Shown in pieces: positions 1 to 6,466 of a DNA stretch of 6,466 nucleotides. This DNA is from a virus. Lineage: Duplodnaviria; Heunggongvirae; Uroviricota; Caudoviricetes. The notes beneath the pieces are model-generated. The model had not been told where the DNA came from. It did no database searches and saw only the letters and a program-made list of their open reading frames with translations. Numbering within the stretch: the first letter of the stretch is position 1; each line of letters begins with the position of its first letter. Location of the stretch: IMG/VR virus record IMGVR_UViG_2606217106_000014, positions 1 through 6,466 of that record; one strand, written 5' to 3'. The position numbers and the translations under genes are program-made.

Positions 1-328
1 CACAAGCAACTGATAATGCCCCCGGAGCAGGAGCATCTGTAGCACAGCGCGGGGTGTCGATAAGTTCCACTGGAACCAGAGTCGGAGAGGCCGGAAAAGA
101 TTGTGATACTGTAGGGCCTACAATAGTTGGAGGCATTCTACGAGAAATACGTCCTTCTCTTTGCCAGAGGCGTAGCCATTTAAAAATCAGGTTGTTATCA
201 ACGCCATGTTCCCGGGCCAGTTGTGCAACATTGGCATTTGGTTTCGAAGCCAGTTCAACCATATGAAGTTTAAATTCATTAGAAAATATCCGGCGGGTTC
301 CGGAGCGCCAGTCTGTAGGTTTATCCAT
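1..328 (-). CDS. IS transposase OrfA-like helix-turn-helix protein, N-terminal part (gene continues past window start)
   Basis: Not in the ORF track because it has no stop in the window. Reverse-strand translation from ATG (complement of 326-328) gives MDKPTDWRSGTRRIFSNEFKLHMVELASKPNANVAQLAREHGVDNNLIFKWLRLWQREGR..., open to position 1. The pattern FSxEFK...VAQLAREHGV..NLIFKWLR is typical of IS OrfA HTH domains. GGAG lies 8 nt upstream on the minus strand. Confidence 0.6.
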   Translation of the reverse strand, partial: MDKPTDWRSGTRRIFSNEFKLHMVELASKPNANVAQLAREHGVDNNLIFKWLRLWQREGRISRRMPPTIVGPTVSQSFPASPTLVPVELIDTPRCATDAPAPGALSVAC

Positions 329-341
329 CAATAGAACTCCG

Positions 342-368
342 TCTAATTTAGAAGGAGCTCTAATTTAG
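342..368. repeat. Two exact 10-bp direct repeats TCTAATTTAG (342-351 and 359-368) separated by 7 bp
   Basis: Read directly from the sequence. They lie between the OrfA start and the putative IS terminus, so they may be subterminal transposase-binding repeats. Confidence 0.5.
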
Positions 369-473
369 TCTGCAAGGAGCAGGTGTTACAGACGGCATTG
401 GCTTTACGCTTACCTTACTCTGAACGCCCACCGCGTCCGTCCCGCACATTCCAGCAACGCATCTGGAGGTAAC

Positions 474-1520
474 GTGCGGGTATTACTTCGACCTGTTCTG
501 GTACCGGAACTCGGGCTGGTGATCGTTAAGCCGGGCCGTGAATCCATGCCGGTATTCCACAATACCCGGGTACTGGTGGAGCCGGAACCGAAAAGCATGC
601 GTAATCTGCCGTCCGGGGTCGTTCCTGCCGTTCGCCAGCCGCTGGCGGAGGATAAATCATTACTGCCATTTTTCAGCGACGAACGAGTGATTCGTGCTGC
701 TGGTGGCGCTGGCGCATTGTCTGACTGGTTACTGCGCCATGTTAAATCCTGCCAGTGGCCACACGGCGATTATCACCACAGTGAAACCGTCATTCACCGT
801 TATGGTACCGGCGCAATGGTGTTGTGCTGGCACTGCGACAACCAGCTGCGCGACCAGACCTCCGAATCACTCGGGCAACTTGCTCACCAAAACCTGTCTG
901 CATGGATGATTGACGTCATACGCCATGCAATGAATGGCTCGCAGGAACGGGAATTATCGCTGGCTGAATTATCCTGGTGGGCGGTCCGCAATCAGGTGGC
1001 GGACGCGCTACCGGAAGCGGTATTACGTCGTTCGCTGGGGTTGCGTGCGGAAAAAATCCGCTCAATGTACCGTGAAAGCGACATCGTACCGGGAGAGCAG
1101 ACCGCCACCAGCATACTGAAGCAGCGCACAAAAAATCTTGCGCCGCTGCCTCACGCCCACCAGCAAACCCCGCCACAGGAAAAGACGGTGGTCAGCATTG
1201 CTGTTGATCCGGAGTCTCCGGAATCTTTAATGAAGCGACCTAAACGTCGCCGTTGGGTAAATGAGAAATATACGCGCTGGGTAAAGACACAGCCGTGTGC
1301 GTGTTGTGGTAAGCCAGCCGACGATCCCCATCACCTGATTGGTCATGGTCAGGGCGGAATAGGGACAAAAGCCCACGATATTTTCACGCTACCGTTGTGT
1401 CGGGAGCATCACAACGAACTTCATGCTGATCCGCTGGCATTTGAAGAAAAGCATGGTTCCCAGATTGATTTAATTTTTCGTTTTCTTGATCGCGCCTTTG
1501 CAACCGGCGTGCTCGGGTAA
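474..1520 (+). CDS. DUF968-family prophage protein (YdfU-like) with C-terminal Cys/His HNH-like motif
   Basis: 348-aa ORF with GTG start preceded by GGAGG (465-469). C-terminus CACCGKPADDPHHLIGHGQGGIGTKAHDIFTLPLCREHHNELH has CxxC...HH...C..HH..H spacing resembling an HNH/zinc-finger nuclease fold. Position immediately upstream of rusA and Q matches lambdoid nin regions. Confidence 0.8.
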   Translation: MRVLLRPVLVPELGLVIVKPGRESMPVFHNTRVLVEPEPKSMRNLPSGVVPAVRQPLAEDKSLLPFFSDERVIRAAGGAGALSDWLLRHVKSCQWPHGDYHHSETVIHRYGTGAMVLCWHCDNQLRDQTSESLGQLAHQNLSAWMIDVIRHAMNGSQERELSLAELSWWAVRNQVADALPEAVLRRSLGLRAEKIRSMYRESDIVPGEQTATSILKQRTKNLAPLPHAHQQTPPQEKTVVSIAVDPESPESLMKRPKRRRWVNEKYTRWVKTQPCACCGKPADDPHHLIGHGQGGIGTKAHDIFTLPLCREHHNELHADPLAFEEKHGSQIDLIFRFLDRAFATGVLG

Positions 1521-1532
1521 AAGAGGTTACTG

Positions 1533-1907
1533 ATGCGTATAGAGTTTGTTTTGCCTTACCCGCCGACGGTGAACACCTACTGGCGTCGTCGTGGCAGCAC
1601 ATATTTTGTATCAAAAGCCGGTGAGCGTTATCGCCGGGATGTGGCACTTATTGTCCGCCAGCAGCGGCTGAAATTAAACCTGTCCGGAAGGCTGGCAATA
1701 AAAATTACTGCAGAGCCACCGGATAAGCGCCGTCGTGACCTGGACAATATTCTGAAAGCACCACTGGATGCACTGACGCATGCGGGGCTTCTCATAGACG
1801 ACGAGCAGTTTGATGAAATCAATATTGTGCGCGGTCAGGTCGTTCCCGGTGGGCGGTTGGGCGTGAAAATTTACGAAATAATGCATGACGGGCAGGTCAA
1901 AAAATGA
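1533..1907 (+). CDS. rusA: RusA-family Holliday junction resolvase (crossover junction endodeoxyribonuclease)
   Basis: 124-aa ORF with RBS AAGAGG (1521-1526). PPDKRRRDLDNILKAPLDALTHAGLLIDDEQ matches the RusA catalytic core of E. coli RusA ([30 protein letters not shown]), as recalled. Confidence 0.9.
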   Translation: MRIEFVLPYPPTVNTYWRRRGSTYFVSKAGERYRRDVALIVRQQRLKLNLSGRLAIKITAEPPDKRRRDLDNILKAPLDALTHAGLLIDDEQFDEINIVRGQVVPGGRLGVKIYEIMHDGQVKK

Positions 1908-2725
1908 AGCTGGAAGATTTACCGAAATACTATTCCCCGAAATCGCCTGGCCTGACCGATGCGTCCGCCTCGACATCAAAAGATGCGCTGAGTATCACTG
2001 ATGTGATGGCCGCGCAGGGCATGACACAAAATCGGGCTGAGATGGGTTTTTCTGCGTTCCTTAGGAAAATGGGCATTAGTATGAATGACAGAGAGCGGGC
2101 AACAGAATTGCTGACAGAATATGCACTCAGTCGGTGTGATCGCGTGGCGGCGTTAAGAAAACTCCCGGCAGAAATAAAACCGGTAGTGATGCGCATTATG
2201 GCTTCGTACGCTTTTGAGGATTATGCCCGCAGCGCAGCGAGTAAAAAGCAGTGCCCTTGTTGCTATGGGGAAAAATTTATTGAAAGCGTAGTTTTTACAA
2301 ACAAGGTCCAGTATCCGGATGGTAAGCCGCCGGTATGGGCAAAGTGTACGAAAGGTGTGTATCCGTCTTACTGGGAAGAATGGAAAAAAGTCAGGGAGGT
2401 GGTAAAAGTTGCCTGTCCGGAGTGTGGCGGAAAGGGTGAGGTTTCCACCGCCTGTAAGGATTGCCGTGGGCGTGGTGTCGCCATTCATCGTGAAGAGTCG
2501 GTAAAACGTGGTATGCCTGTTATCAGAGACTGCCAGCGTTGTGGTGGTCGTGGCTGTGAAAGACTACCATCAACGGAGGCATTTAATGCCATATGCAAAG
2601 TGACGAGTGCTATCACGCTTGATACGTGGAAAAAATCAGTGAAACGCTTTTACGATACGTTGGTGGTTCGGTTTGACATTGAAGAGGCATGGGCGGAGCG
2701 GCAGTTAAAGAGGGTAACGCGATAG
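1904..2725 (+). CDS. Q: Lambda-family late antiterminator Q with expanded CxxC zinc-binding region
   Basis: 273 aa. N-terminus (YYSPKSPGLTDASASTSKDALSITDVMAAQGM) and C-terminus (TWKKSVKRFYDTLVV...RVTR) align by eye with lambda Q. Four CxxC motifs, three of them CxxCxGxG (CPECGGKG, CKDCRGRG, CQRCGGRG). ATG overlaps the rusA stop (ATGA at 1904-1907). Confidence 0.85.
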   Translation: MKLEDLPKYYSPKSPGLTDASASTSKDALSITDVMAAQGMTQNRAEMGFSAFLRKMGISMNDRERATELLTEYALSRCDRVAALRKLPAEIKPVVMRIMASYAFEDYARSAASKKQCPCCYGEKFIESVVFTNKVQYPDGKPPVWAKCTKGVYPSYWEEWKKVREVVKVACPECGGKGEVSTACKDCRGRGVAIHREESVKRGMPVIRDCQRCGGRGCERLPSTEAFNAICKVTSAITLDTWKKSVKRFYDTLVVRFDIEEAWAERQLKRVTR

Positions 2726-2730
2726 TGTTG

Positions 2731-2775
2731 TTGATTTTTCCCGAATCTGTGGTAAATTTGCTCTAACGATGGGCG
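2731..2775 (+). promoter_or_regulatory. pR'-like late promoter with qut (Q-utilisation) site
   Basis: TTGATT (2731-2736), 16-bp spacer, extended -10 TGgTAAATT (2750-2758), then TGCTCTAACGATGGG. This closely resembles lambda pR' (TAAATTTGACTCAACGATGGG), including the AACGAT pause-inducing element (2765-2770). Sits directly downstream of Q. Confidence 0.7.
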
Positions 2776-2806
2776 TTTTATGCCTGACGTTATAAGATTT
2801 TTTACA

Positions 2807-2831
2807 CCCCGCCGCCTGGCGGGTTTTTTTA
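2807..2831 (+). terminator. tR'-like intrinsic terminator
   Basis: Stem CCCGCC (2808-2813) / GGCGGG (2818-2823), loop GCCT, then T7 (2824-2830). Predicts a short pR' transcript of about 65 nt. Confidence 0.75.
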
Positions 2832-2952
2832 TGACTGAAATCGCGTCAGTACAGTAAACGCGCTGGTGGCGGTGAATACCTGTCTTTCAGCTTGCTGGCT
2901 TTTTCGACAAGAGTTATTGGTGTGTCACGTTAACCGGAAAAGGGAAAAAGAC

Positions 2953-3150
2953 ATGCTAAAACAGCAGGATATGACAGAAACCGCCAGAGTAGTGTTTAAT
3001 GAATTAAGCGTTACCGAACCGGCGACAGTCGGGGAGATTGCACAGAATACTTACCTTTCACGCGAACGCTGCCAGTTAATACTGACCCAGCTGGTTATGG
3101 CGGGTCTGGCAGACTATCAGTTCGGTTGTTACAGACGCCTTCCGCAGTGA
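2953..3150 (+). CDS. Small hypothetical protein (65 aa), possible winged-helix DNA-binding protein
   Basis: ATG at 2953 preceded by AAAAGGGAAAAAGAC. Translation MLKQQDMTETARVVFNELSVTEPATVGEIAQNTYLSRERCQLILTQLVMAGLADYQ has an HTH-like segment (TVGEIAQNTYLSRERCQLIL). The track's upstream start at 2866 has no RBS. Function unknown. Confidence 0.45.
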   Translation: MLKQQDMTETARVVFNELSVTEPATVGEIAQNTYLSRERCQLILTQLVMAGLADYQFGCYRRLPQ

Positions 3151-3160
3151 AGGCTTTTTT
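3137..3160 (+). terminator. Intrinsic terminator overlapping the stop codon of the small ORF
   Basis: Stem GCCTTC (3137-3142) / GAAGGC (3149-3154), loop CGCAGT, then T6 (3155-3160) and ATTT. Confidence 0.65.
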
Positions 3161-3177
3161 ATTTGTGGTAAATGGGC

Positions 3178-3208
3178 GGCTGGTGGGTGTTAGGGGCACC
3201 CACCAGCC
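3178..3208. promoter_or_regulatory. Perfect 12-bp inverted repeat GGCTGGTGGGTG-N7-CACCCACCAGCC upstream of the methyltransferase
   Basis: Read directly. No T-run follows, so it is not a canonical terminator; could be an operator or RNA processing/stability element. It is preceded by TGTGGTAAAT (3164-3173), which duplicates the pR' -10 region (2748-2757). Confidence 0.4.
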
Positions 3209-3300
3209 ATCTGCTCATGCGTTGGGTTCACAAGCAAACCTCAGGCCCACTGCTTTGCGCAAAAGCAGAATGAGCCTATCAGAGACAGGCTTAATGATCC

Positions 3301-4350
3301 ATGCTTAATACTGTAAAAATATCCAGTTGTGAGTTAATCAACGCCGACTGCCTGGAATTTATCCGGTCGTTACCCGAAAATTCTGTTGACCTGATAGTCA
3401 CGGACCCGCCGTACTTTAAAGTGAAGCCTGAGGGCTGGGATAACCAGTGGAAGGGCGACGATGATTACCTGAAGTGGCTGGACCAGTGTCTGGCGCAGTT
3501 CTGGCGGGTGCTGAAACCTGCCGGAAGTCTTTACCTGTTCTGTGGTCATCGCCTGGCATCTGATATCGAAATCATGATGCGTGAACGCTTCAGTGTGCTG
3601 AACCATATTATCTGGGCGAAGCCGTCCGGACGCTGGAACGGATGCAACAAGGAAAGCCTGCGGGCGTATTTCCCCGCCACAGAGCGCATTCTGTTCGCGG
3701 AACATTATCAGGGGCCGTATCGTCCGAAAGATGCCGGGTATGCGGCGAAGGGCAGTGCACTGAAACAGCATGTGATGGCCCCGCTGATTTCTTACTTTCG
3801 TGATGCGCGCGCGGCCCTGGGGATAACGGCAAAACAGATTGCAGATGCCACAGGAAAGAAAAACATGGTGTCGCACTGGTTCAGTGCCAGTCAGTGGCAG
3901 TTGCCGAACGAAAGCGATTATCTGAAATTACAGGCGCTGTTTGCCCGGGTGGCAGAAGAGAAACATCAGCGCGGTGAACTGGAAAAGCCCCACCACCAGC
4001 TGGTGGATACGTATACGTCACTGAACCGGCAGTATGTGGAGCTGCAGAGTGAATATAAGCATCTGCGGCGGTATTTTGGTGTGACGGCGCAGGTGCCGTA
4101 CACGGATGTGTGGACACATAAACCGGTGCAGTTCTATCCCGGGAAACATCCGTGCGAAAAACCGGCAGAAATGCTGCAGCAGATAATCAGCGCAAGCAGT
4201 CGTCCGGGTGACCTGGTTGCAGATTTTTTTATGGGCTCAGGTTCAACGGTAAAGGCGGCTATGGCGCTTGGGCGTCGTGCAATTGGTGTTGAGCTGGAGA
4301 CCGGACGTTTTGAGCAGACAGTCAGGGAAGTTCAGGATTTAATCGTTTGA
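3301..4350 (+). CDS. Orphan DNA N6-adenine methyltransferase, beta class (N6_N4_Mtase type)
   Basis: 349 aa. Motif IV DPPY near the N-terminus (LIVTDPPYF) and motif I FxGxGS near the C-terminus (DFFMGSGSTVKAAMALGRRAIGVE), i.e. the permuted IV->TRD->I order of beta-class amino-MTases. No restriction endonuclease partner in the window. Confidence 0.9.
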   Translation: MLNTVKISSCELINADCLEFIRSLPENSVDLIVTDPPYFKVKPEGWDNQWKGDDDYLKWLDQCLAQFWRVLKPAGSLYLFCGHRLASDIEIMMRERFSVLNHIIWAKPSGRWNGCNKESLRAYFPATERILFAEHYQGPYRPKDAGYAAKGSALKQHVMAPLISYFRDARAALGITAKQIADATGKKNMVSHWFSASQWQLPNESDYLKLQALFARVAEEKHQRGELEKPHHQLVDTYTSLNRQYVELQSEYKHLRRYFGVTAQVPYTDVWTHKPVQFYPGKHPCEKPAEMLQQIISASSRPGDLVADFFMGSGSTVKAAMALGRRAIGVELETGRFEQTVREVQDLIV

Positions 4351-4399
4351 AACGGATGAGATTGCAGAATTAATTACGCACCATTATTATTCTGCTCCC

Positions 4400-4475
4400 G
4401 GCCCTTTAGCTCAGTGGTGAGAGCGAGCGACTCATAATCGCCAGGTCGCTGGTTCAAATCCAGCAAGGGCCACCA
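4400..4475 (+). tRNA. tRNA-Ile2 (anticodon CAU, ileX/ileZ-like; automated tools may call it Met)
   Basis: 76-nt cloverleaf: acceptor GGCCCTT/AAGGGCC, D-arm GCTC...GAGC, anticodon loop CTCATAA, T-arm GCTGG-TTCAAAT-CCAGC, discriminator A, encoded CCA. Near-identical in layout to E. coli ileX as recalled. Confidence 0.85.
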
Positions 4476-4482
4476 TCACATA

Positions 4483-4559
4483 CCGCCATTAGCTCATCAG
4501 GAAAGAGCGCCAGCCTTCGAAGCTGGTTGCGCGGAGTTCGGGTCCCCGAAGGCGGTCCA
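4483..4559 (+). tRNA. tRNA-Arg-like, apparent anticodon UCG, with non-canonical features
   Basis: D-arm GCTC...GAGC, anticodon stem CCAGC/GCTGG with loop CTTCGAA, T-loop TTCGGGT, 3' CCA. Acceptor CCGCCAT/AAGGCGG has one mismatch and starts with C; the T-stem has one mismatch. Boundaries +/- 2 nt. Confidence 0.6.
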
Positions 4560-4572
4560 TTATCTGTATCCT

Positions 4573-4649
4573 GCGTTGTTAGCTCAGCCGGACAGAGCAA
4601 TTGCCTTCTAAGCAATCGGTCACTGGTTCGAATACAGTAGAACGCGCCA
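4573..4649 (+). tRNA. tRNA-Arg (anticodon UCU)
   Basis: Acceptor GCGTTGT/AGAACGC (one mismatch), D-arm GCTC...GAGC, anticodon stem ATTGC/GCAAT with loop CTTCTAA, T-loop TTCGAAT, discriminator G, encoded CCA. Confidence 0.8.
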
Positions 4650-4664
4650 CACTTATTTTCCCTG

Positions 4665-4688
4665 GCTCGCTTTTGCGGGCTTTTTTTT
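4665..4688 (+). terminator. Intrinsic terminator downstream of the tRNA cluster
   Basis: Stem GCTCGC (4665-4670) / GCGGGC (4675-4680) with one G-U pair, loop TTTT, then T8 (4681-4688). Confidence 0.6.
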
Positions 4689-4900
4689 AAATGTCTCATA
4701 ATTCAGGCGGTTGACTGTTGTCTGGTTTGCGGGGAGTTTGTTAAAAGAAACTGGCATGGTGAATCCCCCTGTGCGGAGGGGCAATCAGCAACTGGTGTTT
4801 TGTCACCGACCCTTATCCTTTCTGTGCGGGTTCAGGTGCTGATACTGAACTCACCGGGAGGCACCCGGCACCATGCAATGGCACATAGCGCCACTCTCCA

Positions 4901-4925
4901 GCCCCTCTCCGGAGGGGCTTTCTTA
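4901..4925 (+). terminator. GC-rich hairpin with weak U-tract (terminator-like or RNA structural element)
   Basis: Perfect 8-bp stem AGCCCCTC (4901-4908) / GAGGGGCT (4913-4920), tetraloop TCCG, then TTCTT. Confidence 0.35.
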
Positions 4926-4930
4926 TGGAC

Positions 4931-4958
4931 AAAAAAATCCCGCGCTGGGAGACGCGGG
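4931..4958 (-). terminator. Minus-strand intrinsic terminator
   Basis: On the minus strand: stem CCCGCG (4958-4953) / CGCGGG (4944-4939), 8-nt loop, then A and T7 (4937-4931). Confidence 0.45.
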
Positions 4959-5152
4959 CGGCAAGGAATAAACAACAAAACGTGAAGTAATATTTCAGTT
5001 GGCGAATAATATCCGACAGTAATCACTCTGCGCAATAGCGCGGCCTTTTTCGTATTGCGGGCTGTTGTCTATCTTCTGCCATTGTCCTGTAACTTCCGGA
5101 CTTCAGCCCGCTCCTCATTTTACTCACAATATTATCCAGGCCGGGAGGATTC

Positions 5153-6466
5153 ATGGCATTTAAACACTATGACGTGGTCAGGGCGGCGTCGCCGTCAGAC
5201 CTTGCGGAGCGACTGACACAAAAACTGAAGGAAGGCTGGCAGCCGTTTGGCAGTCCTGTGGCTATCACGCCTTATACACTGATGCAGGCCATTGCCGCAG
5301 AGGGTGATGTGACCACGCCTGTGGTTGTGCCCGACACAGGGGCTGGTGGCTCTCCGGGAGTGGCTACCACTGAACCGGAGTATTACTACGTTATTCCCCA
5401 GGCCGGGCAGTCGAACGGTATGGCCTATGGTGAGGGGCTTCCTCTGCCGGAGACCTATGATCGCCCTGACTCCCGTATTAAGCAGCTGGCCCGTCGCAGC
5501 ACTGTGACGCCGGGTGGTGATACCTGTGCATACAATGACGTTATTCCGGCAGACCACTGTCTGCATGATGTTCAGGACATGAGCGCACTTAACCATCCTC
5601 ATGCAGACCTGAGTAAGGGCCAGTACGGGACTGTCGGTCAGGGGCTGCATATTGCCAAAAAACTGCTGCCTTATATCCCGCAGAATGCCGGGATTCTTCT
5701 GGTGCCCTGTTGCCGTGGCGGGTCTGGTTTAACCGTGGGTAATGACGGCACGTTCAGCGAAACGTCTGGCGCATCGGCAAATTCAGCCCGCTGGGGAGTG
5801 GGTAAACCGCTGTATCAGGATTTTCTCTTCCGTACAAAAGCGGCGCTGTCGAAGAACCCGAAAAACAGGCTTCTGGCCGTGGTATGGATGCAGGGGGAAA
5901 ATGATCTTGCGGACGGCAGTCAGCAGCACAGCGGCCTGTTTACCACTATGGTGCAGCAGTTCAGGGCTGATATGGCTGCATATTCTGCACAGTGTGTTGG
6001 CGGAAGTGCTGGCTCGGTGCCGTGGATTTGTGGTGACACCACGTATTACTGGAAGAATCTTAACGCCGATAAATATGAGGCGGTATATGGCGGTTACAAG
6101 GGCAGGGAAGCACAGAATATTTTCTTTGTTCCTTTTATGACGGATGAGAATGGACAGAGCACGCCAACGAATGCTCCGGCGGAAGACCCGGATATTGTGG
6201 CTGTCGGGTATTACGGTGCAGCATCCCGAACCCAGGGCAGTTTTGTTTCGACACAGCGTGACAGCCATTTCAGCTCATGGGCACGCAGGGGCGTCATTTC
6301 AGACCGTCTGGCCTCAGCTATTATGCTCCATGCAGGGCGCACGGCTGAATTGATGCGCGGGCAGACCGTGACACCACCGGATGAGAAGCCGTCACCTGAT
6401 ACACCATCAAAACCGTCCACGCCACCCGCAGACACCACGACGATGAGTACGCTATTTGCTTACCGG
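5153..6466 (+). CDS. nanS-p: NanS-p-type prophage sialate O-acetylesterase (DUF1737 N-domain + SASA/SGNH esterase domain), 5' partial - runs off window end
   Basis: Not in the ORF track because there is no stop in the window; 438 codons open from ATG 5153 (RBS GGGAGGA) to 6466. Translation MAFKHYDVVRAASPSDLAERLTQKLKEGWQPFGSPVAITPYTLMQAIAAEG... then YYYVIPQAGQSNGMAYGEG (GQSN catalytic-serine block), and a Pro/Thr-rich linker TPPDEKPSPDTPSKPSTPPADTTT near the window end. Confidence 0.85.
   Translation, partial: MAFKHYDVVRAASPSDLAERLTQKLKEGWQPFGSPVAITPYTLMQAIAAEGDVTTPVVVPDTGAGGSPGVATTEPEYYYVIPQAGQSNGMAYGEGLPLPETYDRPDSRIKQLARRSTVTPGGDTCAYNDVIPADHCLHDVQDMSALNHPHADLSKGQYGTVGQGLHIAKKLLPYIPQNAGILLVPCCRGGSGLTVGNDGTFSETSGASANSARWGVGKPLYQDFLFRTKAALSKNPKNRLLAVVWMQGENDLADGSQQHSGLFTTMVQQFRADMAAYSAQCVGGSAGSVPWICGDTTYYWKNLNADKYEAVYGGYKGREAQNIFFVPFMTDENGQSTPTNAPAEDPDIVAVGYYGAASRTQGSFVSTQRDSHFSSWARRGVISDRLASAIMLHAGRTAELMRGQTVTPPDEKPSPDTPSKPSTPPADTTTMSTLFAYR

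Follow-up and report, generated by a model that had tools for sequence, protein, structure and literature searches.

A lambda-family Q antiterminator in a lambdoid prophage with an insert that is likely a second zinc ribbon

The window analysed here is a stretch of 6,466 nucleotides of a Caudoviricetes record (IMG/VR IMGVR_UViG_2606217106_000014, positions 1 to 6,466), and it carries a gene for a Q antiterminator (1904..2725, + strand), an ATG open reading frame of 273 aa plus stop. Lambda Q has 207 aa, so that the window protein is 66 aa longer. The locus therefore raises the question of what the additional, cysteine-rich length is and whether a Q protein that carries it acts differently from lambda Q. 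The answer that we favor, with a probability of about 85%, is that the gene encodes the lambda-family Q of a resident lambdoid prophage, that this Q acts in a lambda-like way, and that the additional length is likely a second zinc ribbon, which is accessory and probably ancestral.

Judged by its sequence, the open reading frame is a Q-lambda-family antiterminator. In a Pfam scan, PF03589 (Antitermination protein Q) was matched with 169.6 bits (cutoff 26.7; E 1.6e-50), and the Q21 (PF06530) and Q82 (PF06323) families gave no match at E <= 0.01. A further domain listed for homologues, PF27659, was discarded since it is a faint match to CHP02642 and not a Q-specific domain. The top PDB matches were lambda Q structures (7ubm, E 4e-38; also 4mo1 and 7ubj). 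An AlphaFold2 model of the full-length protein (mean pLDDT 71) was matched by Foldseek to 7ubn_Q with E 5.7e-13 and a target-normalised TM-score of 0.70; 7ubn_Q is lambda Q in the engaged loading complex. Thus the Pfam family, the alignment to lambda Q in the PDB and the Foldseek match all agree with the original prediction that this is a Q antiterminator. RefSeq holds a copy one residue away from the window protein, WP_000762914.1, under the name "antitermination protein".

The body of lambda Q is made of residues 61-113 and 153-207, and its zinc-ribbon arm of residues 114-152 (PMC9388147). Residues 1-113 of lambda Q align with residues 1-113 of the window Q, and residues 116-207 with 182-273. 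The part of the gene at 1904..2242 (+; aa 1-113) would thus encode the N-terminal segment, which is the disordered, nozzle-forming part in lambda Q (PMC9388147), and the first half of the helical body, for which the model has helices at 31-110. The lambda-type zinc-ribbon arm lies at 2447..2563 (+; aa 182-220) and aligns with lambda Q 116-152. It is followed by the second half of the body, with the helix-turn-helix region and the C-terminal helix (2564..2722, +; aa 221-273), which aligns with lambda Q 153-207; the model places helices at 223-233 and 239-272 in this C-terminal half.

The additional residues form one block, aa 114-181 (68 aa; 2243..2446, +), which falls between lambda Q residues 113 and 116. 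Because the limits of body and arm in lambda Q (PMC9388147) place it there, the insert sits exactly at the body-arm junction. Four cysteine motifs are present in the window Q: CPCCYGEK at aa 117-124 (motif 1; 2252..2275, +), CPECGGKG at aa 171-178 (motif 2; 2414..2437, +), CKDCRGRG from aa 184 (motif 3; 2453-2476, +) and CQRCGGRG from aa 210 (motif 4; 2531-2554, +). None of 100,000 shuffled versions of the protein had more than 2 C..C.G motifs, versus the four observed. Three of the motifs are exact CxxCxGxG repeats and the one that contains CPCC is CxxCxGxK, which confirms the coordinates, the length difference and the motif description given earlier for this gene. The two motifs in the arm have direct counterparts in lambda Q, which itself carries CRDCHGTG at 118 and CGRCKGVG at 144. 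Since lambda Q already has two motifs, just two of the four in the window Q are extra; what is new relative to lambda Q is the pair of motifs 1 and 2 together with the 46 residues that separate them. The original prediction had assigned the additional length to the Cys-rich region, and this was correct in that the length is a single block at aa 114-181, but motifs 3 and 4 are not part of it. As a description of the sequence, the term "expanded zinc-binding module" is accurate, with four motifs versus two in lambda Q.

The motifs are strongly conserved. The motif Cys and Gly residues are present in about 140/143 full-length homologues, with C117 and C120 each found in 140 of the 143 and C171, C174 and G176 likewise in 140/143; the latter three are also invariant in alignment A1. 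Motif 1 ends with K in the window Q, a position that is G in 124/143 homologues (87%). In the arm, C184, C187, C210 and C213 align with the lambda zinc ligands C118, C121, C144 and C147 and are invariant in alignment A1.

A long β-hairpin is predicted to lie between motifs 1 and 2 (2276..2413, +; aa 125-170). AlphaFold models of both the full-length protein and aa 108-224 alone have 12-residue strands at 125-136, right after motif 1, and at 159-170, right before motif 2; the insert is modelled with no more than moderate confidence (pLDDT 50-78, dropping under 50 at 146-160). Both models also contain the lambda-type strand-helix-strand arm between motifs 3 and 4, and the arm sub-model superposes on the lambda Q arm with an rmsd of 2.6-3.0 Å over 41-43 columns. 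Because the ends of the hairpin bring motifs 1 and 2 together, the simplest reading is that of tandem ribbons, one formed by motifs 1 and 2 and the other by motifs 3 and 4. The insert is thus most likely a second Cys4 zinc ribbon, whose motifs would clamp the base of a long β-hairpin and which would stand in tandem with the lambda-type ribbon. The sequence data show the membership in the family, the conservation of the motifs, the place of the insert, the layout of promoter, pause and terminator, and the distribution of the module; we infer zinc binding, the pairing of the motifs and whatever the extra ribbon contacts. When the profile of the insert is aligned with that of the arm, motif 1 falls on motif 3 and motif 2 on motif 4 (hhalign probability 58% global and 94% local, a signal that comes mostly from the motif itself). 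Pfam PF03589 matches twice within window-type Q proteins, and family members carry either two motifs or four, with no intermediate set. The two PF03589 matches, the insert-arm pairing and the two-or-four motif counts weakly suggest, at the level of sequence, a tandem duplication of the ribbon.

The Q gene sits in a typical lambdoid prophage late-regulation region. The left end of the window is occupied by the N-terminus of an IS transposase (1-410, - strand; Pfam HTH_Tnp_1, E 1e-10), the frame of which runs off the left end. Since homology to E. coli prophages does not begin before about 408, the prophage segment borders on an insertion sequence here. Upstream of Q are the genes for a DUF968 protein (474-1520), with a weak HNH-nuclease-like match, and for RusA (1533-1907); the start of Q overlaps the RusA stop in the ATGA at 1904-1907. 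The late terminator described below is followed on its 3' side by a 65-aa open reading frame (2953-3150) with a weak winged-helix (TrmB-like) match, and a second terminator-like hairpin (3137-3154) overlaps the end of this frame and precedes a DNA methyltransferase gene (3301-4350). Three tRNA genes (anticodons CAT, TCG and TCT) and then the STnc100 sRNA occupy 4400-4930. RefSeq names the first tRNA (CAT) tRNA-Ile, and the match to the STnc100 sRNA family is full length at 143 bits. The layout of the tRNA genes resembles that found 3' of Q in Shiga-toxin phages. The last open reading frame (5153-6466; DUF1737 plus sialate O-acetylesterase, SASA) has at least 438 aa and runs off the right end, and RefSeq calls the equivalent gene in a matching E. 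coli prophage "SASA family carbohydrate esterase". The same gene arrangement is annotated by RefSeq in E. coli chromosomes, where Q is named "antitermination protein".

A late promoter begins directly 3' of the Q stop codon, and a pause element and a terminator lie beyond it. Alignment with lambda PR' and phi80 pR' placed the putative PR'-like promoter at 2731..2758 (+), with the -35 element TTGATT (2731-2736, +), a 16-bp spacer that holds the candidate Q-binding element TTTCCCGAATCTGTGG (2737-2752, +) and the -10 element TAAATT (2753-2758, +). The annotated Q site of phi80 occupies the same position as this candidate element, and the spacer is kept in four related loci. A generic sigma-70 promoter scan did not call the late promoter because its -35 and -10 elements are weak matches. 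The sigma-dependent pause element AACGAT (2765..2770, +) was assigned by alignment to lambda; it is identical to that of lambda and lies at the same distance from the -10 element (TAAATT-TGACTC-AACGAT-GGG in lambda versus TAAATT-TGCTCT-AACGAT-GGG in the window). A terminator scan identified a strong tR'-like intrinsic terminator (2808..2830, +), in which a stem of 6 GC pairs, CCCGCC-GCCT-GGCGGG, precedes a T7 tail, and the RNA fold of 2765-2832 has -21.9 kcal/mol with a z of -2.5. Since the geometry of promoter and pause is that of lambda, the insert demands no different site layout.

Among known Q proteins, that of phi80 (gp17, AFV29194.1, 269 aa) shares the architecture of the window Q. It carries four motifs (115 CDCC.G, 169 CKPC.G, 182 CRC.G and 207 CDRC.G) and, at the same site, an insert of 66-67 aa that is 54% identical to the window insert. 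With 41% identity overall, the insert is the best-conserved region between the two proteins, and the window hairpin "VFTNKV.YP.GKPP.W...PS.WE.W" is shared. Motif 3 is CxC in phi80 Q and CxxC in the window Q. The phi80 Q gene, like that of the window, is followed by pR', for which a Q-binding site is annotated, and then by a pause-like element and terminators. The helix-turn-helix halves of the two proteins are only 19% identical, and the annotated phi80 Q site is TCGCGGA versus TTCCCGA at the same position in the window; because this half and the site diverge, DNA specificity probably differs between the two. Guo & Roberts (2004; cited in PMC9388147) reportedly studied the regions with which lambda and phi80 Q bind DNA. 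Lambda Q is 39% identical to the window Q over window aa 1-113 plus 182-273 and has the same zinc ligands in the arm. The position of the gene is also the same, as are the -10 and pause sequences given above, whereas the Q-binding spacer of lambda has a sequence unlike that of the window. In lacking aa 114-181 (motifs 1 and 2 and the hairpin), lambda Q has one zinc ribbon versus the two predicted in the window Q. A further long form is found in E. coli K-12, where YdfT/QuuQ (250 aa), the Q of the Qin cryptic prophage, carries four motifs, at 113, 148, 161 and 187, and an insert at the same site. It is 44% identical to the window Q; its insert is shorter, at 49 aa, and its hairpin is of another kind. 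A DUF968 gene precedes Q in both (ydfU before ydfT in K-12 Qin, 474-1520 in the window).

An exhaustive search of 1.8 billion cluster representatives recovered 230 Q-lambda-family members at 50% clustering. Of the full-length family representatives, 29/34 have the long form and 5/34 the short form, and the inserts of the 29 long forms measure 28-77 aa. In many long forms motif 3 is CxCxGxG, not CxxCxGxG. By tblastn, long forms are present in phages Evi (95.6% identity), mEp237, ES18, ST104 and Fels-1 and in Stx2c phages. The window Q gene itself occurs in 2478/5426 complete E. coli genomes at a coverage of at least 80%, mostly at 90-95% nucleotide identity, and clusters at 94% identity to the window Q hold thousands of members named "antitermination protein". 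The variant had been taken, by implication, for an unusual one, and this did not hold up: the same four-motif module is in phi80 Q, in K-12 YdfT and in 29/34 representatives. The prediction had also named the finding that would count against it, namely that the extra motifs are common in an already characterised Q subfamily without a difference in function. Through phi80 Q this is largely what we found, and the module is common. The expanded module is thus the normal state of the family, present in known proteins.

With the insert masked, the nearest neighbor of each short form is a long form, and one such pair (short P0172 and long P0133) is 82% identical outside the insert. In an unbootstrapped neighbor-joining tree of representatives P0121-P0270, the short forms are scattered among the long forms. 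These sequence comparisons suggest that the short, lambda-like forms, lambda Q included, arose by repeated losses of the insert, and the insert-bearing form is the majority state of the family and probably the ancestral one. If the first ribbon was indeed lost repeatedly, it would be dispensable for core Q function; the pattern suggests that the insert is an accessory, dispensable element.

The tandem-ribbon reading has to be weighed against others. There is a possibility that the four motifs form one DnaJ-type domain with nested sites (1+4 and 2+3), a V-shaped two-zinc unit that would replace the Q arm and might possibly have a DnaJ-like protein-binding role. The central Cys-rich domain of DnaJ (PF00684) likewise has the CxxCxGxG motif four times, the K-12 YdfT protein, alone among the window Q, lambda Q, phi80 Q and YdfT, scores above the Pfam DnaJ_CXXCXGXG cutoff (35.4 vs 32.7 bits), and the window Q gives a sub-threshold match of 26.3 bits. 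However, lambda Q with its two motifs scores similarly (23.1 bits against the cutoff of 32.7), so that the DnaJ signal reflects the motif and not the domain. The Foldseek matches of the sub-model to DnaJ zinc domains (2ctt, E 0.5; 7zhs, E 0.67) are not significant, and a Pfam search with the insert by itself returned nothing significant. In the solved lambda Q structures the zinc site is formed by the equivalents of motifs 3 and 4 alone, the 46 aa that separate motifs 1 and 2 are predicted to form a hairpin and so to come back to where they started, and motifs 1 and 2 come and go as a pair. The spacing of the motifs differs from that in DnaJ, the predicted topology of the window Q is tandem and not nested, and, unlike DnaJ, the protein has neither a J domain nor other DnaJ context. 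A single DnaJ-type domain is thus improbable; the resemblance to the DnaJ repeat noted in the original prediction stands at the level of the motif, where it is family-wide, and does not extend to a domain match. The function of this particular allele might also be doubted, as the window Q could be what is left of Q in a prophage under decay, inactive or weakened and without current function. At codon 54 (2063-2065) the window has R, which is found in 0/143 homologues, and the nearest genomic (E. coli) allele encodes the same protein sequence except for G at 54. Because lambda Q residues 52, 56 and 58 contact the β flap-tip helix (PMC9388147), this private G54R could impair function. A second change, Y218C (2555-2557), is common to the window and the nearest allele but rare in the family, 86% of homologues having Y at this position, and the transposase fragment at about 1-410 that abuts the prophage segment would also fit decay. 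Against this, the open reading frame is intact with all zinc ligands present, and the promoter, the pause element, the terminator and the neighboring genes are intact as well, which makes a decayed remnant unlikely.

The most variable part of the insert invites one more explanation. The hairpin tip, at about aa 131-166 (2294-2401), is of low confidence in the model and hypervariable: relatives with 85-91% identity in the rest of the protein carry at least five tip cassettes, unrelated to one another and 23-40 aa long. The extra ribbon, and this tip in particular, could read additional DNA and thereby set or extend the specificity for the Q-binding element. The lambda Q arm does contact DNA via residues near the zinc site (PMC9388147), the insert adjoins the arm, and tip types differ sharply between close relatives. 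We compared the window and the DNA downstream of the Q genes of four relatives (loci L005-L008) and found the spacer TTTTCCCGAATCTGTG essentially identical 3' of Q genes with tip types A (the window), B, C, D and F. Because the spacer is the same across these five unrelated types, the tip does not set DNA specificity, and we rejected it as the determinant; the spacing of promoter and pause is moreover the same in lambda, which is without the ribbon. A DNA-reading role of the extra ribbon is thus very improbable.

Returning to a lambda-like Q with an accessory second ribbon, the window Q should, by homology, work as lambda Q does. The loading mechanism of lambda Q (pausing, contact with the β' zinc-binding domain, and the nozzle) is that described in PMC9388147. 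In the window, the helix-turn-helix body and the zinc-ribbon arm would bind the Q-binding element between -35 and -10 while RNA polymerase is held at the sigma-dependent pause AACGAT. Q would then load onto the paused polymerase, with its zinc ribbon contacting the β' zinc-binding domain, and its N-terminal segment would refold into a nozzle at the RNA-exit channel, so that polymerase would read through the 2808-2830 terminator into the downstream late region. In lambda Q, residues 110-112 and 117 touch the β' zinc-binding domain (PMC9388147). Because the insert adjoins these residues, we infer an added RNA polymerase contact as its most plausible accessory role. Going further, the extra ribbon might be a functional accessory surface that has no lambda Q counterpart, with its conserved base, at the body-arm junction, adding a contact to RNA polymerase close to the β' zinc-binding domain or flap and its hypervariable, cassette-like tip under diversifying pressure, a proposal that we consider possible but doubtful. 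The variable partner of the tip could be, for example, a host factor or a factor of a competing phage that targets Q.

Sequence and Foldseek searches of the PDB found no solved structure of a long-form Q, and searches of a full-text collection of papers turned up neither a second zinc ribbon in Q nor a role for it. Given that RefSeq has a near-identical protein and that nearly half of the complete E. coli genomes carry the gene, the value of this locus as a discovery is small. Its meaning lies with the family: the structurally characterised lambda Q is a minority and probably reduced form, and the majority form has a second predicted ribbon. If the extra ribbon is an accessory surface, then the lambda Q paradigm would not quite fit the loading or action of most members of the Q-lambda family.
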